Source: Escherichia coli (lineage in GTDB: Bacteria > Pseudomonadota > Gammaproteobacteria > Enterobacterales > Enterobacteriaceae). From it: a stretch of 64,000 nucleotides of DNA. The stretch lies in NCBI RefSeq assembly GCF_041886205.1, contig NZ_CP169029.1. One strand, 5' to 3'. The notes below the pieces were generated by a model that worked only from the letters and a program-made list of their open reading frames with translations, did no database searches and had not been told where the DNA came from. Positions 28,541 through 64,000 of this stretch are shown in pieces (the stretch's first letter is position 1; each line of letters starts with the position of its first letter). The translations under genes were made by a program, and so were the position numbers.

Positions 28541-28794
28541 CGACTAAAAGCCTCTTTGCGTCACATTTTTACAACAATTATTGCAGAGAAGATTAATGCT
28601 ATTGGAATGAAGAGAGTAACGAATGGCTAAACCGAATGACGAAAAATTCTGGAAAACAGCACGCAATTTCGTGAAGTGATTATTTCGTCCCTAAGGAAAC
28701 CTCATAGGATGCCTGCGGGTGCCTGAGACTTTCTGTTTTCAGGCTAACCGGGAATCAGAAAGACGAAGGCCCAGACCGATATTTCTATCAACCG

Positions 28795-29012
<218 letters not shown>

Positions 29013-29427: not shown

Positions 29428-29491
29428 CTTCCGATGTAGACCCGTATTCTTCGCCTGTACCACGGGTCGGTTTTAGTACAGGCGTTTTCTT
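29428..29491 (+). ncRNA. rydC: Hfq-dependent sRNA RydC, ~64 nt
   Basis: CTTCCGATGTAGACCCGTATTCTTCGCCTGTACCACGGGTCGGTTTTAGTACAGGCGTTTTCTT matches recalled RydC sequence; TATAAT -10 at 29417..29422; terminator hairpin plus U-run. Confidence 0.8.
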
Positions 29492-33700: not shown

Positions 33701-33911
33701 GGTTCCTCCTTATCGTTCCCTTAAGAATACTGCGTGAGATAATAGTGAGAAGCGGAGCACTCTGAAAGGAGGAAGTCGTATTTCCTTAACCGCCACTCCG
33801 CAAGCCTGACATATCTTTTAAGGAAATGCTGTAGATAAACATTATTCATCTTGCAGCAGAGAATTGTATTTTTCTGAATTCCTGAATTTTTGCCCTTACC
33901 GTTTTAGAATT

Positions 33912-45310: not shown

Positions 45311-48300
45311 TTAGAACGTTTTCTTGAAGTTCAGCATCACGCCTTTGTCGCTGATGCCGTCCTCTTTCCAGTTGTACGCATCCAGATTCAGCGAACTTTC
45401 TTTGCTGCTGTACTTCACGCCGACGCTTGCCAGGCTGTTAATGCCGCCGCCCTTCTGACCGTCATCGACGTTAAAGTGCTGACTGCCTGCGCCTGCCAGG
45501 CTTGCCGTACGCTGGCTCTTCGCGTAGCTCAGGTTCGGCCCGCCTTCCAGCGTGGCGTTCGCACTCCAGCCGTCTTTTCCTGCATAATCCAGCTTCAGCC
45601 CGACGATGCTGTCCACCGCCGTTTCGCTGCCGCTGTTCATATTCAGGTTAAAGTCTCCGGCGTTACGCTCCTTATAGCCACCTTCCAGTGTGTGACGCAG
45701 TTTTACACCCGCATATGGCGTAACCTTCAGTCCTTCGCTCGGTTCGAAAGTCTTCGCTCCTTCGCTACGGAACTCCAGGTACTGCTGCTTCACGTCGGTA
45801 TCAGCCGTTTTGTTCGTGTTGCTAAATGCAATCGAGCGGCTGCTGTCAAGGTTGTGAACGTCGTAACGCAAGGCGTTATTCCAGTTCATGCCATTGTCGA
45901 AGGACATCTGATGTTTCAGGCCAAAGAACTGGCTATAACCGCCTGTAACGCCATTATCACCCGCTTTCTGCGCACCATCACCATCGAGACGAGCGATACC
46001 GTACTCCAGACTCATCGTCTGGCTTTCGCTCAGGTCGATGGTTTTACGCAATGCCAGCATGTCGTATTCGGTATTATTACCTAACTCGGCACGCGGATCG
46101 CCTTTCGCGACAACGTTGAACGCCAGACCGTTACCTACCTTCGGTGCGGCATCCGCCAACATACTAAAGCGGTTGCTTAACACGCGCGCTTCGCGGAATA
46201 CCGTGGTCGCCTGGCTACCGCTGACCTGTTTCAGAGCGCTGTTCAGTTCAGCAGTCGTGCCGACGTTCAGGCTGGTAAACAGTTCGTTGTTGGTGTAACC
46301 CGCATCCAGTGCTTTCGCGATGTCATTCACCGAAGCATCTGTTGCCACATCGGTATAAGCGTTTTTGCTCATGGTGACGTCAACGTTACCGCTGGCATCG
46401 GTGCTGCCTTTAGCAGTCCATACCACGGAGGTTGAGGTGATAGCATCCGCGTCGGTCAGGTTGCTGCCCTCCACCACGTTATCAAAATTAACGGTGGTGT
46501 CTGCCGTACAAGCGGTAAACCCGGTGTTGATCCCCACGCCGTTCATGCTGGCATTGTTGACCCTGAGCTTACCGGCGCTGCCATCGGCACTCGTTCCCAC
46601 CACGTAACCGTTGAGATTATTCATGCCGCCATCAACTGCATCACTTCCCGGCGTTAGGCTAACCGTAGTGGGATTCGGTACATCCGGCAACGTATAGTCG
46701 CCATAATGCAATTCCGTGTTATTACCGTTGTTACCGTTCACGCCTTCAACATTGACGCTGTCGCCCTGCTTAATCAGCCCCGATCCTGTCACGCCATCCG
46801 CAATGACCACCGTGCCGTTGTTGACCACGTGACCTTCTGTACCCAGCACGCTGAATGCAAACGAGTCATTGGCGAAGATATTGATGGTGCCGTTGTTCTC
46901 GATCACCGCATCCGCCGTGGCGTTAGCATCGAGTTGCATACCGATCATGCCCGTATCGGTAGTGCCCTCTGTACCGAGGTTGATGGTGCCAGTGTTAACC
47001 AGTTGCGCATTCTTATCACCTTCCATAGCCACAGCACCGGTGCCGCTGATATTCATCGTGCCGTCATTCTGCGCAATGAAGTTACTGTGAGTGAATTTCA
47101 CGGCGCTGGTACTGTCGTGGTCGAAGTTGATGACCCCGTTATCCAGATTCCAGAAGAATGCGCTCTGATCGCCAGCGTTATTGGCGCTCACCACCAGCGA
47201 CTTCGCAGAGACATCAATCGTTCCATCGTTGATAAAGCGACCATTCCCACCCCACATATTGACAGCACCGTTATGTGAGGAATTACTGATGTCCATGTGA
47301 CCAGTGTTATAAAGCGTACCGGACTGATTAATATGCACAGCATTCTTGTTGTTATCGAGGATAAACTCACCGCTGTTATTGAAGACGGCGTTGTTATTAA
47401 CTTCCAGCATACCTGCGTTATTGCCGCCACTGCTACTACCGAGGCGCCAGGTTCCTTCGTTATTGACCCAGGCATCACCGGTTAATGCAGAACCATTGTC
47501 CACTTTGCCATCTTGTAGGTTATTAAAGATGCCACTGGTCTGAATAATACGTTTACTCACCGTACCACTGTTATTAAAGACGCCGGATTTTTGCACAACA
47601 TTGCTAATAGTACCGGAGTTGTTCACCAGATTAGTGCTAGCCCCAGCATACATTGTCACATTACCGTTGATGGTACCCTCATTATTGAGTACCCCCCCCT
47701 GAGCATCAATATTACCCATCGAGCCAGCATTATCTATTACAGCATCTGGTGCCAATTTCACCATGGAGTTAATAATCCCCGTAGAGGCATTTTCGAGCGT
47801 ACCACTCCGAACGTTAATATCACTACCAGAAGCCGTCCCCGCATTAATAACGCTTCCGGGCACTGCGTCAGTTATCACCACAGAATTAATGAAGTTTGTC
47901 GACTCACCATCTGCCACCAGGATATCACCACCAGAGTATTGCAATGAGACATAATTATCGCCCTGGTTATATTCATCCGCACTCTGACAAATACCAAAAG
48001 TACAGAACCTGCCATAGTTAATAATTATTCCTGTTCCATCGCTGTAAAATGCCTGGCCGATATTTGTATCGATATTAATTACACCCGTTATATCATTAAT
48101 TGCCATACCACTATTAATTGCACCCACCGCGAACAGCTGGTTCTCTTGCTGCTTCGTCACGCCCTCATCTGCGGTGAGGTTGATTGTCCCCTGGTTGACA
48201 ACGGTCCCGCCGCTCATCGCCAGCATACCGAAACCTTCGTTATTAACATTGATGGTTCCGGTATTTAACCCACTGGCATCGCCATTTCCGATATCGGTTG

Positions 48301-51196
48301 ACCCCACAAGAACGCCACCGGACATAAGATAAGGATGGGACGTTTGCCAGTAGGATTTACTGATGATATTACCATCGCTGTCCAGTTCGGGAATAAAGCC
48401 ATCGACATTGATTTCCCCGGCGTTGGTCGCCGTGCCTTTAGATGCGGCGACGGCATAAATCCCCGCCCCCTGCAGATTCATGGTGGCGTCGGATTCATTG
48501 ATCACGCTGCCATCATTACTGGCCCACAGACCATAGTTGGCACCGAAATACCATTTCAGAGGGGCTTCAGATATCCCTCCGGCAAAAGCAGGCGTCGTTA
48601 CAGAAAGCAGATTTATCACGCCACCCGACGCATTCGTAACCTGAGAATTCTGGCCACGAGCACGCATTGTCCCCACCGTGGTGAATTGCTCACCGCTAGG
48701 TTTGACATTAATAGTTCCACTATTAGTGATATGTGCACCATTGTTAGCCATCATTAAATCCTGGCTATCCAGCGTGTTAATCACACCTTTGTTTTCAACG
48801 CCGGACTGACTGCCAGTAGCAGAAATAAGCGCACGATTATCGAAGAAATAGTCGGTATCTCTGACTTTACTGGATATATCCGTTACAGAGTTTTTATCAA
48901 ATATAACATTTCCACCGTCCGCCACCGTGACCAACGTAAAGGCACCCACTACCTGACGGATATCCATAGTTGAATGGCCACTAATGTTAACTGTATTATC
49001 ACCAATAATTGATATACCATCTATGATATGCGCGGAGCTATCCCCAGCAACATTAATACCACCATCGATATTAATGGTATTATTCGTACCGGAAACGACC
49101 ATGCCATTCGCCAAGTGATCTTGATATATTAATACACCTTCCACCGTAATATTAACATGACCACTAATATCCACCGTGTTATTTTCACCACTGATCACGC
49201 CGCCGCTTATCGGAGTGATTTGTGCATCAGCGTTATCGCCGAGACTGGAATTAATATTAATGCTTCCGTCAACGCTAATATGGCTGTCATTACCCGTCAG
49301 GCTGAAACCTGTAGCACCCGGCGCATTGCCTTCGCTATCTGGTTGCTGGAATACGTTAATATCTCCGCTTAATTCAACCTGCTCACGGTCACCCACAATG
49401 GATACCCCAGTTCCGTATCGCGAAACATCAATTTCGCCCACGTTACCAAAAACTTCATCATCACCATCTATCAGAACTCCCACAGAACCGGAATCCGTAA
49501 CAACAATCTTGCCTTTATTACTTATCTGCGAGTTATTACCGGCGATATAAATACCCGTTGCCCCTCCGCTGACGTAGAGGTCACCTTCCTGGCTAATTGT
49601 TGCATTGTGCCCAGCAACTTTTGTCCCTACCGCATTCTCACCGTCAACCGTCATATCCCCGGCGATATTCATCTCATTGCCATCGCCAGTGATGGTTATA
49701 CCGGTGGCATTCTCACCCAAAATATTAAGATCATAGGTCGCCAGGGTAATACTATTGTTGTCGCCGATAATCTCCATGCCGGTTGTATCGTCTTTAACCA
49801 ACATCGAGCCAGCAAGCGAAATACTGCTGCTGTCCCCGGTGATTTTTACACCAGTACCGTTATTTGTCGTGGTGATGTCCCCCACATTGACAAAGGTAGT
49901 ATTATCACCATTGATTAACACGCCATAGGGGTTTCCATCACCGTCCGCCTGACCAACATTGATATCACCAATGTTCATAAAGGTTGTCTGATCGCCATCC
50001 AGCAACACACCGATGGAACTGTCATCCACCACAGTAATATTACCTTTATTACTGATGACAGTACCCTTACCCTCGGCGTCAATACCGTGTGCGCCACCGC
50101 TGACGTATAAGTCACCCTGCTGCCTTACAATGGCATCTTCGCCGATAATTTTTGACCCCGTTGAATTTGCACCATCAACGGTCATGTCGCCTTTGATTTC
50201 AACGCGGGCATCATCCCCTGTAATCACACTCCCCGTGCCTCCATTCGCGATTTCAACATCACCAACGGTGTCCAGCGTGGTACGATCGCCATTAACAATA
50301 ACTGCCGCCCCACCATCAACTTCCGTCTCACCATTATTAGTAATGGTGATATCATCACCGGTAAGAATACCTACCACCGAACCTTCACCAATCGCGGTAG
50401 TTTTGCCATCGTTGTTCAGGGTGATGTCGTTACCGTCAACGTTTATCACAACGCCGCCATTCAGCGCGATGTTGCCGCCATGGTCGGTAATAGTGGCATC
50501 GTTAATATGGAAATGTTCGCCAGTTGTACCGTCTGCGGTGGTGAGTGACTCTATGATTATTTCGATTTTTCCCGCTTCGTCATAGCGCCAGGTGGAGGTT
50601 CCGCCAGGATTGACGCCATTGAACGAAGCCGTGTTAGCCGCCTCGTCGACTAACCAATCCTTCACGATTGTGGTAGTGCCGCCAGGTCCGGTAAGCGTAT
50701 AGCTGCCATCGTCATTTTTGGTGTAGGTAAAGGTGGTATCACGTAATTTTAGGGTCTTCGCGTCCTGATCCCAGGTGACATCGTTTTTATAGACCACAGG
50801 ATCGTGTTTGACTGGCGTGTCATCGCCACCGTCGTCCGGGGTATCATCGCCGCCATCATCCGGCGGGACAGGTGTGTCGCCGCCATCATCCGGCACCGGA
50901 GACGGATCGTCATGATGATTATTATTATCGTGGAGTGCATATACTGCGACGCCTGTGACTGCCGCTGCCAGCCCCACTGCAGCCCAGGGTAATAACTCAT
51001 TATCTTCAACTGATTTACACTCTGCCGGCAGCTTTTCTAGCTGTTCTTTACTTAGTGATTTAATATTAGCCGGGCAGCTAATCTTGCTGGATTTACGAGA
51101 TTCATCCGATGTTTCCGCTATCGACGTATCTGCCGCCCATGTCTGACTGCTTAACGCCATTGCAACACAGACACTGAGCAATTTTTTCCTTTGCAT
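45311..51196 (-). CDS. ydbA: Intact autotransporter YdbA, 1961 aa (signal peptide, repetitive beta-helix passenger, C-terminal beta-barrel)
   Basis: Single ORF 45311..51196; signal peptide MQRKKLLSVCVAMALSSQTWA; GD/GN-rich repeats; C-terminal barrel ending KKTF; SD GAGGA upstream of ATG. Confidence 0.85.
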   Translation of the reverse strand: MQRKKLLSVCVAMALSSQTWAADTSIAETSDESRKSSKISCPANIKSLSKEQLEKLPAECKSVEDNELLPWAAVGLAAAVTGVAVYALHDNNNHHDDPSPVPDDGGDTPVPPDDGGDDTPDDGGDDTPVKHDPVVYKNDVTWDQDAKTLKLRDTTFTYTKNDDGSYTLTGPGGTTTIVKDWLVDEAANTASFNGVNPGGTSTWRYDEAGKIEIIIESLTTADGTTGEHFHINDATITDHGGNIALNGGVVINVDGNDITLNNDGKTTAIGEGSVVGILTGDDITITNNGETEVDGGAAVIVNGDRTTLDTVGDVEIANGGTGSVITGDDARVEIKGDMTVDGANSTGSKIIGEDAIVRQQGDLYVSGGAHGIDAEGKGTVISNKGNITVVDDSSIGVLLDGDQTTFMNIGDINVGQADGDGNPYGVLINGDNTTFVNVGDITTTNNGTGVKITGDSSSISLAGSMLVKDDTTGMEIIGDNNSITLATYDLNILGENATGITITGDGNEMNIAGDMTVDGENAVGTKVAGHNATISQEGDLYVSGGATGIYIAGNNSQISNKGKIVVTDSGSVGVLIDGDDEVFGNVGEIDVSRYGTGVSIVGDREQVELSGDINVFQQPDSEGNAPGATGFSLTGNDSHISVDGSININSSLGDNADAQITPISGGVISGENNTVDISGHVNITVEGVLIYQDHLANGMVVSGTNNTINIDGGINVAGDSSAHIIDGISIIGDNTVNISGHSTMDIRQVVGAFTLVTVADGGNVIFDKNSVTDISSKVRDTDYFFDNRALISATGSQSGVENKGVINTLDSQDLMMANNGAHITNSGTINVKPSGEQFTTVGTMRARGQNSQVTNASGGVINLLSVTTPAFAGGISEAPLKWYFGANYGLWASNDGSVINESDATMNLQGAGIYAVAASKGTATNAGEINVDGFIPELDSDGNIISKSYWQTSHPYLMSGGVLVGSTDIGNGDASGLNTGTINVNNEGFGMLAMSGGTVVNQGTINLTADEGVTKQQENQLFAVGAINSGMAINDITGVINIDTNIGQAFYSDGTGIIINYGRFCTFGICQSADEYNQGDNYVSLQYSGGDILVADGESTNFINSVVITDAVPGSVINAGTASGSDINVRSGTLENASTGIINSMVKLAPDAVIDNAGSMGNIDAQGGVLNNEGTINGNVTMYAGASTNLVNNSGTISNVVQKSGVFNNSGTVSKRIIQTSGIFNNLQDGKVDNGSALTGDAWVNNEGTWRLGSSSGGNNAGMLEVNNNAVFNNSGEFILDNNKNAVHINQSGTLYNTGHMDISNSSHNGAVNMWGGNGRFINDGTIDVSAKSLVVSANNAGDQSAFFWNLDNGVINFDHDSTSAVKFTHSNFIAQNDGTMNISGTGAVAMEGDKNAQLVNTGTINLGTEGTTDTGMIGMQLDANATADAVIENNGTINIFANDSFAFSVLGTEGHVVNNGTVVIADGVTGSGLIKQGDSVNVEGVNGNNGNNTELHYGDYTLPDVPNPTTVSLTPGSDAVDGGMNNLNGYVVGTSADGSAGKLRVNNASMNGVGINTGFTACTADTTVNFDNVVEGSNLTDADAITSTSVVWTAKGSTDASGNVDVTMSKNAYTDVATDASVNDIAKALDAGYTNNELFTSLNVGTTAELNSALKQVSGSQATTVFREARVLSNRFSMLADAAPKVGNGLAFNVVAKGDPRAELGNNTEYDMLALRKTIDLSESQTMSLEYGIARLDGDGAQKAGDNGVTGGYSQFFGLKHQMSFDNGMNWNNALRYDVHNLDSSRSIAFSNTNKTADTDVKQQYLEFRSEGAKTFEPSEGLKVTPYAGVKLRHTLEGGYKERNAGDFNLNMNSGSETAVDSIVGLKLDYAGKDGWSANATLEGGPNLSYAKSQRTASLAGAGSQHFNVDDGQKGGGINSLASVGVKYSSKESSLNLDAYNWKEDGISDKGVMLNFKKTF
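50818..50896. repeat. Imperfect tandem repeat (three ~24-30-bp units) encoding Pro/Asp/Gly-rich linker in ydbA
   Basis: Repeated TCGCCGCCATCATCCGG units encoding PDDGGD(D)TP x3. Confidence 0.6.
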
Positions 51197-57016: not shown

Positions 57017-60000
57017 ATGATTACTATTGACGGTAATGGCGCGGTTGCTTCGGTCGCATTTCGCACCAGTGAAGTTATCGCCATCTACCCTATTACCCCC
57101 AGTTCCACGATGGCAGAACAGGCTGATGCCTGGGCCGGAAACGGCTTAAAGAACGTTTGGGGAGACACACCACGCGTGGTTGAAATGCAGTCGGAAGCGG
57201 GTGCTATCGCTACCGTGCATGGCGCTTTGCAGACGGGTGCCCTTTCAACATCGTTTACGTCATCGCAGGGTTTGCTGCTGATGATCCCGACGCTGTACAA
57301 ACTGGCAGGCGAACTAACACCGTTTGTCCTGCATGTAGCGGCACGTACCGTTGCCACTCATGCACTCTCTATTTTTGGCGATCATTCCGACGTTATGGCG
57401 GTGCGCCAGACGGGTTGCGCGATGTTGTGTGCAGCAAACGTCCAGGAAGCGCAAGACTTTGCTCTCATTTCGCAAATCGCGACGCTGAAAAGCCGCGTGC
57501 CATTTATTCATTTCTTTGATGGTTTCCGCACGTCCCACGAAATCAATAAAATTGTCCCGCTGGCCGATGACACGATTCTTGATCTCATGCCGCAGGCCGA
57601 AATTGATGCTCATCGCGCCCGGGCGCTCAACCCGGAACATCCGGTGATCCGCGGTACGTCCGCCAATCCTGACACTTATTTCCAGTCACGCGAAGCCACC
57701 AACCCATGGTACAACGCGGTCTATGACCATGTTGAACAGGCGATGAATGATTTCGCTGCCGCGACAGGTCGTCAGTATCAGCCGTTTGAGTATTACGGGC
57801 ATCCGCAAGCGGAACGGGTGATAATCCTGATGGGCTCTGCCATTGGCACCTGTGAAGAAGTGGTTGATGAATTGCTAACCCGTGGCGAAAAAGTCGGCGT
57901 GCTGAAAGTTCGCCTGTACCGCCCCTTCTCCGCCAAACACTTGCTACAAGCTCTGCCGGGATCCGTACGCAGCGTGGCGGTACTGGACAGAACCAAAGAA
58001 CCCGGTGCCCAGGCAGAACCGCTCTATCTGGATGTAATGACCGCACTGGCAGAAGCCTTTAATAATGGCGAGCGCGAAACTCTGCCCCGTGTCATTGGTG
58101 GGCGCTATGGTCTTTCATCCAAAGAATTTGGCCCGGACTGTGTACTGGCGGTATTTGCCGAGCTCAACGCGGCTAAACCGAAAGCACGCTTTACGGTTGG
58201 TATTTACGATGATGTAACCAATCTGTCACTACCGTTGCCGGAAAACACCCTGCCAAACTCGGCGAAACTTGAAGCCTTGTTTTATGGCCTTGGTAGTGAT
58301 GGCAGCGTTTCCGCGACCAAAAACAATATCAAGATTATCGGTAATTCCACGCAGTGGTACGCACAGGGCTATTTTGTTTACGACTCCAAAAAGGCGGGCG
58401 GCCTGACAGTTTCTCACCTTCGCGTGAGCGAACAGCCGATTCGTTCCGCTTATCTCATTTCCCAGGCTAATTTTGTTGGCTGCCACCAGTTGCAGTTTAT
58501 CGATAAATATCAGATGGCTGAGCGTTTAAAACCTGGCGGCATTTTCCTGCTCAACACGCCGTACAGCGCAGATGAAGTGTGGTCGCGCTTGCCGCAGGAA
58601 GTTCAGGCCGTGTTAAACCAGAAAAAAGCGCGCTTCTATGTGATTAACGCGGCGAAAATCGCCCGCGAATGTGGCCTGGCGGCCCGTATTAATACCGTCA
58701 TGCAGATGGCTTTTTTCCATCTGACGCAAATTCTGCCTGGCGATAGCGCCCTCGCAGAATTGCAGGGTGCGATTGCCAAAAGTTACAGTAGCAAAGGTCA
58801 GGATCTGGTGGAGCGCAACTGGCAGGCTCTGGCGCTGGCGCGTGAATCCGTTGAAGAAGTTCCGCTGCAGCCGGTTAATCCGCACAGCGCCAATCGACCA
58901 CCAGTGGTTTCCGATGCCGCTCCTGATTTCGTGAAAACCGTAACCGCGGCGATGCTCGCCGGGCTTGGTGATGCACTCCCCGTTTCGGCGCTGCCGCCAG
59001 ACGGCACCTGGCCGATGGGCACTACGCGCTGGGAAAAACGCAATATCGCCGAAGAGATCCCCATCTGGAAAGAGGAACTTTGTACCCAATGTAACCACTG
59101 CGTTGCCGCTTGCCCACACTCAGCTATTCGCGCAAAAGTGGTGCCGCCTGAAGCGATGGAAAACGCCCCTGCCAGCCTGCATTCGCTGGATGTGAAATCG
59201 CGTGATATGCGCGGGCAGAAATATGTCTTGCAGGTGGCACCGGAAGATTGCACCGGTTGTAACCTGTGCGTCGAAGTTTGCCCGGCGAAAGACCGTCAGA
59301 ATCCAGAGATTAAAGCCATCAATATGATGTCTCGCCTGGAACATGTCGAAGAAGAGAAAATCAATTACGATTTCTTCCTCAACCTCCCAGAAATCGACCG
59401 TAGCAAACTGGAACGTATTGATATTCGTACATCGCAGCTGATTACACCGCTGTTTGAATATTCCGGTGCTTGTTCCGGTTGTGGCGAGACGCCGTATATT
59501 AAATTGCTGACTCAGCTCTATGGCGACCGGATGTTGATCGCTAACGCCACCGGCTGTTCTTCAATTTATGGCGGTAACCTGCCCTCTACACCGTATACCA
59601 CCGATGCCAACGGTCGTGGGCCGGCATGGGCGAACTCTCTATTTGAAGATAATGCCGAATTTGGCCTTGGTTTCCGCCTGACGGTCGATCAACACCGTGT
59701 CCGCGTGCTGCGTCTGCTGGATCAATTTGCCGATAAAATCCCGGCGGAATTACTGACGGCGTTGAAATCAGACGCCACGCCAGAGGTTCGTCGTGAACAG
59801 GTTGCAGCTTTACGCCAGCAACTCAACGATGTTGCCGAAGCACATGAACTTCTACGTGATGCAGATGCACTGGTGGAAAAATCAATCTGGCTGATTGGTG
59901 GCGACGGCTGGGCTTACGATATCGGCTTTGGCGGTCTGGATCATGTATTGAGTTTGACGGAAAACGTCAACATTCTGGTGCTGGATACGCAATGCTATTC

Positions 60001-60541
60001 CAACACCGGTGGTCAGGCGTCGAAAGCGACACCGCTGGGTGCAGTAACTAAGTTCGGCGAGCACGGCAAACGTAAAGCGCGTAAAGATCTTGGCGTCAGT
60101 ATGATGATGTACGGTCATGTTTATGTGGCGCAGATTTCTCTCGGCGCGCAGCTCAACCAGACGGTGAAAGCGATTCAGGAAGCGGAAGCGTATCCGGGGC
60201 CATCGCTGATCATCGCTTATAGCCCATGTGAAGAGCATGGTTACGATCTGGCACTCAGCCACGACCAGATGCGCCAACTCACAGCTACCGGCTTCTGGCC
60301 GCTATATCGCTTCGATCCTCGTCGTGCCGATGAAGGCAAACTGCCGCTGGCGCTGGATTCACGCCCGCCGTCAGAAGCACTGGAAGAAACGTTACTTCAC
60401 GAGCAACGTTTCCGTCGTCTGAATTCGCAGCAGCCAGAAGTGGCAGAACAGTTATGGAAAGATGCTGCAGCTGATTTGCAAAAACGCTATGACTTCCTGG
60501 CACAAATGGCCGGAAAAGCGGAAAAAAGCAACACCGATTAA
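57017..60541 (+). CDS. ydbK: Pyruvate:flavodoxin oxidoreductase YdbK/Pfo, 1174 aa
   Basis: ORF 57017..60541; two 4Fe-4S ferredoxin motifs (CxxCxxCxxxCP) and TPP-binding region. Confidence 0.95.
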   Translation: MITIDGNGAVASVAFRTSEVIAIYPITPSSTMAEQADAWAGNGLKNVWGDTPRVVEMQSEAGAIATVHGALQTGALSTSFTSSQGLLLMIPTLYKLAGELTPFVLHVAARTVATHALSIFGDHSDVMAVRQTGCAMLCAANVQEAQDFALISQIATLKSRVPFIHFFDGFRTSHEINKIVPLADDTILDLMPQAEIDAHRARALNPEHPVIRGTSANPDTYFQSREATNPWYNAVYDHVEQAMNDFAAATGRQYQPFEYYGHPQAERVIILMGSAIGTCEEVVDELLTRGEKVGVLKVRLYRPFSAKHLLQALPGSVRSVAVLDRTKEPGAQAEPLYLDVMTALAEAFNNGERETLPRVIGGRYGLSSKEFGPDCVLAVFAELNAAKPKARFTVGIYDDVTNLSLPLPENTLPNSAKLEALFYGLGSDGSVSATKNNIKIIGNSTQWYAQGYFVYDSKKAGGLTVSHLRVSEQPIRSAYLISQANFVGCHQLQFIDKYQMAERLKPGGIFLLNTPYSADEVWSRLPQEVQAVLNQKKARFYVINAAKIARECGLAARINTVMQMAFFHLTQILPGDSALAELQGAIAKSYSSKGQDLVERNWQALALARESVEEVPLQPVNPHSANRPPVVSDAAPDFVKTVTAAMLAGLGDALPVSALPPDGTWPMGTTRWEKRNIAEEIPIWKEELCTQCNHCVAACPHSAIRAKVVPPEAMENAPASLHSLDVKSRDMRGQKYVLQVAPEDCTGCNLCVEVCPAKDRQNPEIKAINMMSRLEHVEEEKINYDFFLNLPEIDRSKLERIDIRTSQLITPLFEYSGACSGCGETPYIKLLTQLYGDRMLIANATGCSSIYGGNLPSTPYTTDANGRGPAWANSLFEDNAEFGLGFRLTVDQHRVRVLRLLDQFADKIPAELLTALKSDATPEVRREQVAALRQQLNDVAEAHELLRDADALVEKSIWLIGGDGWAYDIGFGGLDHVLSLTENVNILVLDTQCYSNTGGQASKATPLGAVTKFGEHGKRKARKDLGVSMMMYGHVYVAQISLGAQLNQTVKAIQEAEAYPGPSLIIAYSPCEEHGYDLALSHDQMRQLTATGFWPLYRFDPRRADEGKLPLALDSRPPSEALEETLLHEQRFRRLNSQQPEVAEQLWKDAAADLQKRYDFLAQMAGKAEKSNTD

Positions 60542-60570
60542 ATGCTCTGGATAAGGATTATCCAATTCTA

Positions 60571-60679
60571 AAAAAAAGCCCGGACGACTGTTCGGGCTTG
60601 TCTTTTTATATGTTGGAAAATCAGTGGCAATGCAATGGCCCAACAGAAAATAAAATCTGTGACAATAAAGGCATATAAC
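60571..60679 (-). ncRNA. micC: Hfq-dependent sRNA MicC (repressor of ompC), ~109 nt
   Basis: Minus strand GTTATATGCCTTTATTGTCACAGATTTTATTTTCTGTTGGGCC...AAGCCCGAACAGTCGTCCGGGCTTTTTTTT matches recalled MicC; divergent from ompN. Confidence 0.8.
60578..60608. terminator. Bidirectional intrinsic terminator shared by ydbK (+) and micC (-)
   Basis: Hairpin GCCCGGACGACTGTTCGGGC flanked by A-run upstream and T-run downstream. Confidence 0.7.
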
Positions 60680-60906
60680 CCGCGCAGAATAACGTATAGA
60701 AAATTAAAAGTATAATTTTTATTTTGTATGTATTATCTTCGATACATTCACCAGACTTATTATCATTTCAGAAGAATTATTTGATTAAGGTTTTACTTAA
60801 GGCGTAACAAATGATATTTATCGGCTAACTGAACTTCTCCTTTAGGATGTTTTCACTCCCCGAAATGGGGATAAAAGGCAAATAAAATAACTAAAGGATT
60901 TATTCA

Positions 60907-62040
60907 ATGAAAAGCAAAGTACTGGCACTTTTAATTCCTGCCCTGCTCGCCGCAGGTGCTGCACATGCAGCCGAAGTTTATAATAAAGACGGCAACAAAT
61001 TAGATCTGTATGGCAAAGTTGATGGCCTGCATTATTTTTCTGATAATTCAGCGAAAGATGGCGACCAGAGCTATGCGCGTCTGGGTTTTAAAGGCGAAAC
61101 CCAAATTAACGATCAACTCACTGGCTACGGTCAATGGGAATACAATATTCAGGCAAACAACACTGAATCTTCAAAAAACCAGTCATGGACCCGTCTGGCA
61201 TTTGCCGGACTGAAATTTGCAGAATACGGTTCTTTCGATTACGGACGTAATTATGGCGTAATGTACGACATCGAAGGCTGGACCGATATGCTGCCTGAAT
61301 TTGGCGGTGACTCTTATACCAATGCAGACAACTTTATGACTGGTCGTGCCAATGGCGTCGCGACTTATCGTAATACTGATTTCTTCGGTCTGGTAAATGG
61401 TCTGAACTTCGCGGTGCAGTACCAAGGTAACAACGAAGGTGCCAGTAATGGTCAGGAAGGCACCAACAACGGACGTGATGTTCGCCATGAAAACGGTGAC
61501 GGCTGGGGTCTTTCCACAACATATGATTTAGGCATGGGCTTTAGCGCTGGTGCGGCATACACCTCTTCTGACCGCACCAATGACCAGGTTAACCATACTG
61601 CGGCGGGTGGTGATAAAGCAGACGCGTGGACTGCTGGGCTAAAATACGATGCTAACAATATTTACCTGGCAACCATGTATTCAGCAACGCGTAATATGAC
61701 CCCGTTTGGCGACAGCGATTATGCAGTTGCGAACAAAACCCAGAACTTTGAAGTTACTGCACAATACCAGTTTGATTTTGGTCTGCGTCCGGCAGTCTCT
61801 TTCCTGATGTCTAAAGGCCGTGACCTTCACGCTGCCGGTGGTGCAGACAACCCGGCAGGTGTTGATGATAAAGATCTGGTTAAATACGCCGATGTTGGCG
61901 CAACTTACTATTTCAATAAAAACATGTCCACCTATGTTGACTATAAAATCAACCTGCTGGATGAAGATGACAGTTTCTACGCTGCCAACGGCATCTCTAC
62001 CGATGATATTGTTGCTTTAGGTCTGGTTTATCAGTTCTAA
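60907..62040 (+). CDS. ompN: Outer-membrane porin OmpN, 377 aa
   Basis: ORF 60907..62040; signal peptide, general porin family, C-terminal YQF. Confidence 0.9.
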
Positions 62041-62048
62041 ATCCTCCT

Positions 62049-62072
62049 GCCCGCTGTTTTGGCGGGCTTTTT
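62049..62072 (+). terminator. Rho-independent terminator after ompN
   Basis: Hairpin GCCCGC-tgtttt-GGCGGGC followed by TTTTT. Confidence 0.7.
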
Positions 62073-62099
62073 CTGCTTATTCTTCCTCCTTTGATCTAA

Positions 62100-62615
<516 letters not shown>

Positions 62616-62621
62616 CACTAA

Positions 62622-62647
62622 CGCCCGCACATTGCTGCGGGCTTTTT
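62622..62647 (+). terminator. Rho-independent terminator after uspF
   Basis: Hairpin CCCGCA-cattgc-TGCGGG followed by CTTTTT. Confidence 0.65.
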
Positions 62648-62790
62648 GATTCATTTCGCAAATGTGCTGACATTTTCCCCTCTAATCCGTACCATACACG
62701 CCACAGTTTTTATATCAGATTTCTTATGCTGGGCGTTCCGGCATGACGCATACTCTTCTGATGCCATATAACGAATTGAGTCGCTTTTAA

Positions 62791-63726
62791 ATGTCGCAAA
62801 ATCAAGAAATTAGTAAGAAAGAACAATACAACCTGAACAAATTACAAAAACGCCTGCGTCGTAACGTGGGCGAAGCCATTGCTGACTTCAATATGATTGA
62901 AGAAGGCGATCGCATCATGGTTTGCCTCTCAGGGGGTAAAGACAGCTATACCATGCTGGAGATTCTGCGCAATTTGCAGCAAAGCGCGCCAATCAATTTT
63001 TCGCTGGTGGCTGTTAACCTCGATCAAAAGCAACCGGGCTTCCCGGAACACGTTCTGCCCGAGTATCTTGAAAAGCTGGGCGTTGAGTACAAGATTGTGG
63101 AAGAGAACACTTACGGTATCGTGAAAGAGAAGATTCCGGATGGTAAAACAACATGTTCTCTGTGTTCTCGTCTTCGTCGCGGTATCCTTTATCGCACCGC
63201 AACGGAACTGGGGGCGACGAAGATCGCGCTGGGTCACCATCGTGACGATATCCTGCAAACGCTGTTCTTAAATATGTTCTACGGCGGCAAGATGAAAGGT
63301 ATGCCTCCGAAACTGATGAGCGATGATGGCAAACATATCGTTATTCGTCCGCTGGCCTACTGCCGCGAGAAAGATATTCAGCGATTTGCCGATGCAAAAG
63401 CGTTCCCGATTATTCCGTGCAACCTGTGCGGTTCACAGCCTAACCTGCAACGACAAGTGATTGCTGACATGTTGCGTGACTGGGATAAACGTTATCCGGG
63501 GCGTATCGAGACGATGTTCAGCGCGATGCAGAATGTGGTGCCGTCGCATCTGTGCGATACCGACCTGTTCGATTTTAAAGGCATTACCCACGGTTCTGAA
63601 GTGGTTAACGGGGGGGATCTGGCGTTTGATCGCGAAGAGATCCCACTACAACCGGCGGGCTGGCAGCCTGAAGAAGATGAAAATCAGTTGGATGAGTTAC
63701 GGCTGAATGTGGTTGAAGTGAAATAA
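62791..63726 (+). CDS. ttcA: tRNA 2-thiocytidine(32) synthetase TtcA (YdaO), 311 aa
   Basis: ORF 62791..63726; PP-loop SGGKDS motif and CxxC clusters. Confidence 0.9.
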
Positions 63727-63729
63727 CCC

Positions 63730-63832
63730 GGATAGCGCCCGATGCGCAAGCGTATCGGGCTACTCTTATGGAGGCCGGATAAGACGCGGTCAGCGTCGCA
63801 TCCGGCAATCCCGAATAAGATGTTTACTCTTG
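63730..63832. repeat. REP/BIME-type extragenic palindromes downstream of ttcA
   Basis: Palindrome GCCCGATGCGCAAGCGTATCGGGC and GCCGGATAAGACGCGGTCAGCGTCGCATCCGGC (REP consensus). Confidence 0.65.
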
Positions 63833-63854
63833 CACCCGGCAATTCAACATTTCA

Positions 63855-64000
63855 TTATTTTAATAACCGCACCCGGCACGTTTTTCCTTTAATCTTCCCG
63901 CCCTGTAACTGTTTCCATGCTTTATGAGCAACAGCCTGACGGACCGCGACATAGACATGCGCCGGATGCACGGCGATTTTGCCAATATCTGCGCCATCAA
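63855..64000 (-). CDS. dbpA: 3' end of a convergent gene, probably RNA helicase DbpA (C-terminal ~48 codons); continues beyond window
   Basis: Minus-strand open frame to window edge ending ...GKIKGKTCRVRLLK-stop at 63855..63857; identity inferred from synteny. Confidence 0.45.
   Translation of the reverse strand, partial: DGADIGKIAVHPAHVYVAVRQAVAHKAWKQLQGGKIKGKTCRVRLLK

Follow-up and report, generated by a model that had tools for sequence, protein, structure and literature searches.

The closest described counterpart of the locus analyzed here is the integration site of the cryptic prophage Rac of Escherichia coli K-12. In the annotated genome of strain MG1655 (NC_000913.3), Rac extends over positions 1411899-1434958 (23,060 bp), with ttcA and intR on one side and, on the other, a 51-nt pseudogene, ttcC, along with uspF, ompN and ydbK. 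Experimental excision of Rac has been found to change four N-terminal residues of TtcA, converting the protein into the form present in Rac-free strains, referred to as the ‘ancient’ copy (Liu et al., 2015, PMC4632033), and excision of the 23,060-bp element has been reported in another study (PMC11014345). Rac has been detected in 69% of 638 strains (Ramisetty and Sudhakari, 2019). Another described case is that of e14 in icd, in which attP duplicates a part of the target gene and the gene stays functional, a displaced pseudogene is left at the opposite junction, and a few residues are altered upon excision (PMC6379469).

The DNA analyzed here, a 64-kb stretch from E. coli (the window, hereafter), carries the following genes and elements around the equivalent site.

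57017-60541, plus strand: nifJ/ydbK
60562-60682, minus strand: sRNA MicC, between nifJ/ydbK and ompN, a K-12-like arrangement
60907-62040, plus strand: ompN
62181-62615, plus strand: uspF (universal stress protein F, 144 aa), the left flank of the site, from its open reading frame and NCBIfam NF011581
62616-62790, plus strand: the uspF-ttcA spacer, 175 bp, colinear with the K-12 uspF-ttcC spacer
62623-62648, plus strand: intrinsic-terminator-like hairpin with a T run, 3' of uspF, a consensus match only
62791-63726, plus strand: ttcA (tRNA 2-thiocytidine(32) synthetase, 311 aa), intact, with a pre-Rac 5' end
62791-62814, plus strand: ttcA codons 1-8, MSQNQEIS, swapped for the phage-borne MQENQQIT upon Rac integration

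The end of uspF at 62615, the start of ttcA at 62791 and the N-terminal sequence of TtcA, all as described in an earlier note on this DNA, agree with the open reading frames and with the equivalog scores, which are 303 bits for UspF (NCBIfam NF011581, cut-off 166) and 512 bits for TtcA (NCBIfam NF007972, cut-off 272), and uspF is also annotated as such in the matching genomes. The terminator-like hairpin, consisting of GCCCGCACATTGCTGCGGGC and then TTTTTG, is kept in Citrobacter, and no Rfam family matches were found in the uspF-ttcA spacer. Elsewhere in the window, Rfam recognizes the sok antitoxin RNA (hokB/sokB locus) and the sRNA RydC, at 28717-28868 and 29428-29491, both ordinary for this region. 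Downstream of ttcA, the window reaches into dbpA, a minus-strand gene represented by its 3' end, and the gap between these two genes (63727-63850) holds GC-rich palindromic, REP-like sequences, such as GCCGGATAAGACGCGGTCAGCGTCGCATCCGGC, recognized by eye only.

When the window is compared by blastn with the K-12 stretch that contains Rac, only the two flanks are matched, one at 59801-62840 (98.6% identity), which takes in the entire spacer, and the other at 62798-64000 (97.5% identity), and this comparison detects no Rac DNA within the 64 kb; a Rac-like phage could be present elsewhere in the genome. Between the flanks there are no genes for an integrase, an excisionase or other prophage functions, just a non-coding integrase fossil of 51-93 nt in the spacer, considered below. 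The earlier note had placed Rac between ttcA and uspF in K-12, and this is where the annotation of NC_000913.3 has it; the refuting case named in that note, of Rac being integrated elsewhere, is thereby dismissed. Alignment to both Rac junctions of K-12, which had been proposed as a check, defines an attachment core of 26 bp, and this core runs to 62840, 10 nt farther than the region singled out previously (62616-62830). The features of the attachment site are these.

62815-62840, plus strand: attB core, 26 bp, AAGAAAGAACAATACAACCTGAACAA, identical to both att copies of K-12 Rac
62826-62840, plus strand: 15-bp segment ATACAACCTGAACAA, common to attB, attR and each of the attL variants
62800-62812, minus strand: match to the IHF consensus, TAANNNNTTGATW, immediately 5' of the core, weak on its own

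The core is present as a single copy in the window versus two copies in K-12, one at each end of Rac (L001 3900-3925 and 26960-26985), and in the window it is bordered by host sequence on both sides, with uspF and the spacer to its left and the remainder of ttcA, followed by dbpA, to its right. At the ttcA junction of K-12, the sequence to the left of the core is phage DNA, comprising the intR stop codon, 51 nt, and then ATG CAA GAA AAT CAA CAA ATT ACA, and at the ttcC junction phage DNA lies to the right of the core. The same 26 bp are annotated as attP in the GenBank record KU052037, of Rac-SA53, an inducible phage with this attP. We are thus highly confident, from these alignments, in assigning 62815-62840, corresponding to ttcA codons 9-17, as an empty attB for Rac-type temperate phages, in either the pre-integration state or the state following precise excision. 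The presence of an unoccupied ttcA allele is in itself ordinary and has already been published (Liu et al., 2015, PMC4632033).

The attR junctions sampled all end at 62840, and the attL copies differ from the core at positions 10-11 in strain C5 and at positions 9-11 in Rac-SA53. As the 15-bp segment at 62826-62840 is identical in attB, attR and every attL variant, the crossover most likely takes place within this segment. The IHF consensus is matched twice in the window versus 1.3 matches expected by chance, and IHF binding has been reported at the equivalent attL position in K-12 (Kasho et al., 2021, PMC8407004). A search of the surroundings of the core for inverted or direct repeats that could act as core-type binding sites for the integrase yielded short, chance-level matches only. 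When a reconstructed attP was compared with sequenced phages, six records matched and none spanned both arms, due to the deposited records being prophage-derived.

The TtcA protein encoded in the window differs from that of K-12 at residues 2, 3, 6, and 8, within the swapped 5' end (MSQNQEIS versus MQENQQIT), in agreement with the four changes reported for Rac excision (Liu et al., 2015, PMC4632033), and further at residues 117, 258, and 290, which represent ordinary polymorphism. The peptide encoded by the ttcC remnant of K-12, up to its stop codon, is exactly the start of TtcA in the window. The exchange can be envisaged as follows. The tyrosine integrase IntR recombines the 26-bp core that is common to the phage and the host. 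Just downstream of int, attP carries eight codons resembling those of ttcA (MQENQQIT), preceded by a start codon and a ribosome-binding region of the phage's own. After integration, ttcA remains intact, with a promoter supplied by the phage and with four altered residues, whereas its original promoter and start codon, along with the first 17 codons, are stranded beside uspF, as the pseudogene ttcC. As Rac replaces the 5' end of ttcA, the phage must supply the expression signals as well. In the window, none of these integration steps appears to have occurred, the native spacer remaining joined to ttcA.

To place the two types of ttcA start in a phylogenetic context, we can turn to the 96 loci across Enterobacterales that were retrieved when a species-representative genome collection was scanned with a degenerate TtcA peptide pattern. 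E. whittamii and seven Citrobacter-type loci possess uspF directly upstream of a ttcA that starts with MSQNQ(E/D)IS, and their spacers align with the spacer in the window; therefore, we read the 5' end in the window as the pre-Rac state, at least for the Escherichia-Citrobacter group. The suggestion in the earlier note, that this 5' end may represent the uninterrupted ancestral form, is thus supported, the peptide being that of the K-12 ttcC remnant and being shared with the outgroups. In most of the other loci, ttcA starts with MQ..., and a complete or fragmentary intR homolog ends about 75-80 nt before the core, making the start of ttcA an integration hot spot across the order.

The empty state is common in E. 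coli. An intact site is found in 2,488 of the 5,426 complete genomes (46%), as counted with a 160-nt query centered on the core at a coverage of at least 80%, and the left junction is intact up to 62840 in 4,323 of the 5,426, as counted with a 311-nt query extending from uspF to just past the core, also at a coverage of at least 80%. By subtraction, about 1,835 genomes (34%) possess a uspF-ttcC-core junction that ends at 62840 (a prophage or a derivative with attR), and about 1,087 genomes (20%) show an earlier break, typically at 62687, and these make up a deletion-scar class. An evenly spaced sample of 60 records (28 intact, 20 attR-type, 11 early-break, and 1 other) agrees with the full counts. 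In the occupied examples, recE-recT-ralR-xisR-intR adjoin ttcA. Both intact and occupied states are seen among the O157:H7 genomes, and such patchy occupancy inside a single serotype implies frequent gain and loss. This patchiness, along with the fact that precise excision recreates exactly the sequence found in the window (PMC4632033, PMC11014345), would also fit a scenario in which an ancestor carried a Rac-like prophage that was then lost through precise IntR/XisR excision, the site being cured as opposed to never occupied. We consider this scenario unlikely, if far from negligible, as there is no positive trace of a cured prophage, precise excision leaving none, and as the site is likewise empty in MB53, the nearest genome found. 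The assignment of 62815-62840 as an empty attB encompasses either history, and what it offers for annotation are the coordinates of the core (62815-62840) and of the probable crossover (62826-62840), as well as the occupancy frequencies over 5,426 genomes.

Some further differences between the window and MB53 can be recorded here. The window is free of a 1,329-bp insertion of the ISVsa5/IS10 type that is present in MB53, and, as 9 bp are duplicated on either side of the MB53 insertion, positions 33803-33811 of the window represent an empty IS target site. At 45311-51196, on the minus strand, the window encodes an uninterrupted ORF of 1,961 aa that matches the BigA/YdbA autotransporter adhesin model with 1,329 bits, below the cut-off of 3,400; the same gene is truncated by IS1 in MB53, and it is presumably IS-disrupted in K-12. 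Inside this gene, at 50847-50894, the window is about 250 nt shorter than MB53, with two blast segments overlapping by 48 nt, which suggests that the length difference is a difference in the copy number of an internal repeat.

As to the spacer itself, it had been described as containing nothing phage-like. This description holds for genes but not for sequence, as a significant relic of the 3' part of an integrase gene can be recognized.

62645-62737 at the protein level, 62660-62710 as the DNA core, plus strand: relic of a Rac-type tyrosine integrase gene, with the HxxR catalytic box (NPYHTRH)

A tblastn search with K-12 IntR against the window produces a match at 62646-62711, equivalent to IntR residues about 340-361 (SNPYHTRHSF versus RNPYHTRHTF). 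With a profile built from eight IntR C-termini, the spacer scores 17.0 bits, compared to a mean of 0.35 (SD 1.5) and a maximum of 10.8 for 3,000 dinucleotide shuffles, and, in all six frames of the 64-kb window, the spacer relic is the only match above 9 bits. At the DNA level, 62660-62710 aligns without gaps to nucleotides 1033-1083 of K-12 intR, with 39 of 51 positions identical, and the local alignment score for relic and intR is 42, whereas shuffled sequences (n = 2,000) average 18.9 and do not exceed 33. The general Phage_integrase model of Pfam finds no match in the spacer ORFs; the relic is detectable only by a clade-specific profile or at the DNA level. Beyond the relic, at 62711-62790, the spacer does not resemble intR significantly (local alignment score of 15, shuffle mean of 15.4). 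A candidate for a second piece of the relic, at 62743-62775 (MTHTLLMPY, resembling QMGHETAQMVY of IntR), noted by eye and in one MAFFT alignment, was rejected, its profile score being -1.4 bits. By these measures of similarity, the identification of the integrase fossil itself is solid.

The same relic is present in K-12, upstream of ttcC, in E. whittamii, and in Citrobacter, and therefore it must be far older than Rac. Since the spacer carries a fossil of a Rac-type integrase, at least one earlier occupation of the locus, long before Rac, is probable, and the term ‘uninterrupted ancestral’ would be valid for the 5' end of ttcA only relative to Rac. In the literature searched, we found no mention of an integrase relic or of a promoter at ttcA, and a search for ttcC yielded primer-sequence noise only.

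With integrase-like sequence indeed present in the window, and with deletion scars present in about 20% of complete E. coli genomes, one could argue that the locus is a decayed Rac remnant, i.e., a recent scar such as those found in phylogroup-B2-type strains, and not a clean empty site. The early-break genomes, for example NU14 (L002 6560-6600 and 8560-8850) and A36 (L007), are similar to the window in that the scar is located between uspF and ttcA and in that integrase-derived sequence is found upstream of ttcA, directly so in the scar. However, they possess an integrase stub of 231 nt with an almost unaltered Rac intR sequence, a ttcA start of the phage type (MQENQQIT), and unrelated foreign pseudogenes, they have lost ttcC and attR, and the old spacer relic is cut in them after TAATC, at a point equivalent to 62687/62688 of the window. 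In the window, by contrast, the relic shares just 76% of its 51 nt with Rac intR, the start of ttcA is of the native MSQNQEIS type, and the spacer is colinear with the uspF-ttcC spacer of K-12, which is outside Rac. The presence of the same relic beside Rac in K-12, as well as in E. whittamii and Citrobacter, further means that it long predates Rac. On the strength of the native ttcA start, the colinear spacer, and the occurrence of the relic in Rac-free outgroups, the recent-scar interpretation was ruled out, and we judge it extremely improbable. The scars may still be relevant to strain CFT073, in which a phage-type TtcA without a prophage has been reported (Liu et al., 2015, PMC4632033), as this exception may be explained by the integrase stub that is retained by B2-type strains such as NU14.

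The ancient relic in the window, in turn, contains a block of unusual conservation that overlaps with a candidate promoter.

62684-62697, plus strand: invariant 14-mer AATCCGTACCATAC, integrase codons N-P-Y-H-T, unique in the window
62667-62695, plus strand: sigma-70-like candidate promoter, with CTGACA as -35 (62667-62672), 17 nt, and TACCAT as -10 (62690-62695), matching the consensus at 9 of 12 positions

The homologous 57 nt were compared for all the loci with enough upstream sequence, and AATCCGTACCATAC was identical upstream of ttcA in 83 of the 90 rows representing Enterobacterales species (loci L009-L104), in intact int genes and relics alike, including taxa as distant as Edwardsiella, Pantoea, and Erwinia. 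As to the seven other rows, Rouxiella (L061) has one substitution, five are without the block, and the last one, a second relic copy in Citrobacter On2M (L039), is displaced in the table by an alignment offset. The distance between the 14-mer and the ATG of ttcA is about 215 nt in the intact integrase loci and about 45-140 nt in the non-coding relics. The CTGACA-17-TACCAT arrangement, which is within the spacing criterion of 16-18 nt, is the sole promoter-like match in 62550-62900, and it predicts a transcription start at about 62701-62705; the relic loci share no similarity downstream of the block, so that conservation stops near the predicted start.

This end of conservation is one of four observations that point to a constraint acting on the DNA of the block itself; the other three are as follows. 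When the E. coli relic is compared to intR, 12 of 36 positions in the flanks have changed, but none in a central run of 15 bases, and we estimate the probability of such a run, at the divergence of the relic, at roughly 0.005. Among 21 distinct 3' ends of intact int genes, synonymous variation is absent from 11 of the 45 conserved degenerate codons, and eight of these 11 cluster at V-K-.-A-.-I and N-P-Y-H, which are the proposed -35 and -10. In six paralogous integrases with different att sites, K-A/S-Y-Q-S-R-H is found at this place, and codon choice is free. As to the five loci without the 14-mer, four possess TTGCTACAAT, an extended -10, in about the same place, and the two Phytobacter loci among these four also keep CTGTATTCGCCG, versus CTGGTATTCGCCG in int. 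Given that the best-conserved part of the relic coincides with the sole sigma-70-like candidate upstream of ttcA, it is plausible that the integrase-derived block is the native promoter of ttcA, kept in both phages and relics.

The ttcA transcription starts that have been mapped in K-12, however, are located elsewhere. They precede the gene by 111 and 114 nt (Kim et al., 2012) and, by coordinate conversion, correspond to positions 1412059 and 1412062 of NC_000913.3. These positions are within the intR coding sequence, approximately 100 nt farther downstream than the 14-mer, where the window has no equivalent of intR; no K-12 start is listed by Kim et al. (2012) at the 14-mer and none is assigned to ttcC, the ttcA starts being only inside intR. 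Considering also that only 9 of 12 positions match a promoter, and that the block encodes the most conserved motif of the integrase, which would bias detection toward it, the block may not be a promoter. It may have been kept because a host regulator of ttcA binds to it, because it is an RNA element in a longer 5' leader or an att arm-type site, or simply because, in young relics that are repeatedly renewed, it evolves most slowly. We view these possibilities, taken together, as doubtful, yet as deserving serious consideration. The non-coding relics hold 14-15 bases unchanged, with the flanks diverged or deleted, and conservation ceases at about the predicted start site. The distance from the block to the ATG, varying from about 45 to about 215 nt, fits a promoter and not an att arm site, the taxa without the 14-mer possess an extended -10 (TGCTACAAT) in about the same place, and no Rfam family matches at the block.

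We therefore return to the promoter interpretation and propose, tentatively and with a confidence just short of even, that a domesticated piece of an integrase gene (roughly 45 nt, encoding the HxxR box, and located at 62667-62697 in E. coli) serves as the promoter of ttcA, unchanged in phages and retained by host genomes across Enterobacterales after prophage decay. Under this proposal, the DNA of the block, wobble bases included, would remain unchanged in living phages of this clade, so that ttcA would keep a promoter post-integration, and the locus would record serial integrations, each replacing the 5' end of ttcA and leaving the promoter block behind. If true, this would present a clear case of a host-gene promoter derived from the coding sequence of a phage integrase, and of an integrase gene constrained at synonymous sites since it drives the very host gene that it displaces. 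Such a role for the relic is possibly new.

Overall, this locus can be compared with three known systems. The Rac site as described by Liu et al. (2015; Sci Rep 5:16074, PMC4632033) is the same locus, with the same 26-bp core and with the same N-terminus in the post-excision protein, TtcA', while the text of that paper makes no mention of promoter displacement or of an integrase relic in the spacer. The flanks of Rac in K-12 are as in the window, uspF with ttcC on one side and ttcA and dbpA on the other, and the window represents the unoccupied allele. The e14 element is similar to Rac in that both insert into a protein-coding gene and bring a substitute for the end of the gene that they displace, but e14 swaps the 3' end of icd, whereas the Rac-type phages swap the 5' end of ttcA and hence supply the signals for the start of both transcription and translation. 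The integrases of the Stx phages 933W, BP-4795, and phiP27 are paralogs of the Rac-type integrases, with 40-44% identity, and they use other attachment sites; like the Rac-type enzymes, they possess the Arm-DNA-bind_2 and Phage_integrase domains, and their int genes are located at the prophage end, beside att. In the HxxR box, the two groups differ, the Stx-phage integrases carrying K-A/S-Y-Q-S-R-H, with synonymous sites that vary, and the ttcA-targeting clade carrying N-P-Y-H-T-R-H, encoded by DNA that is unchanged.
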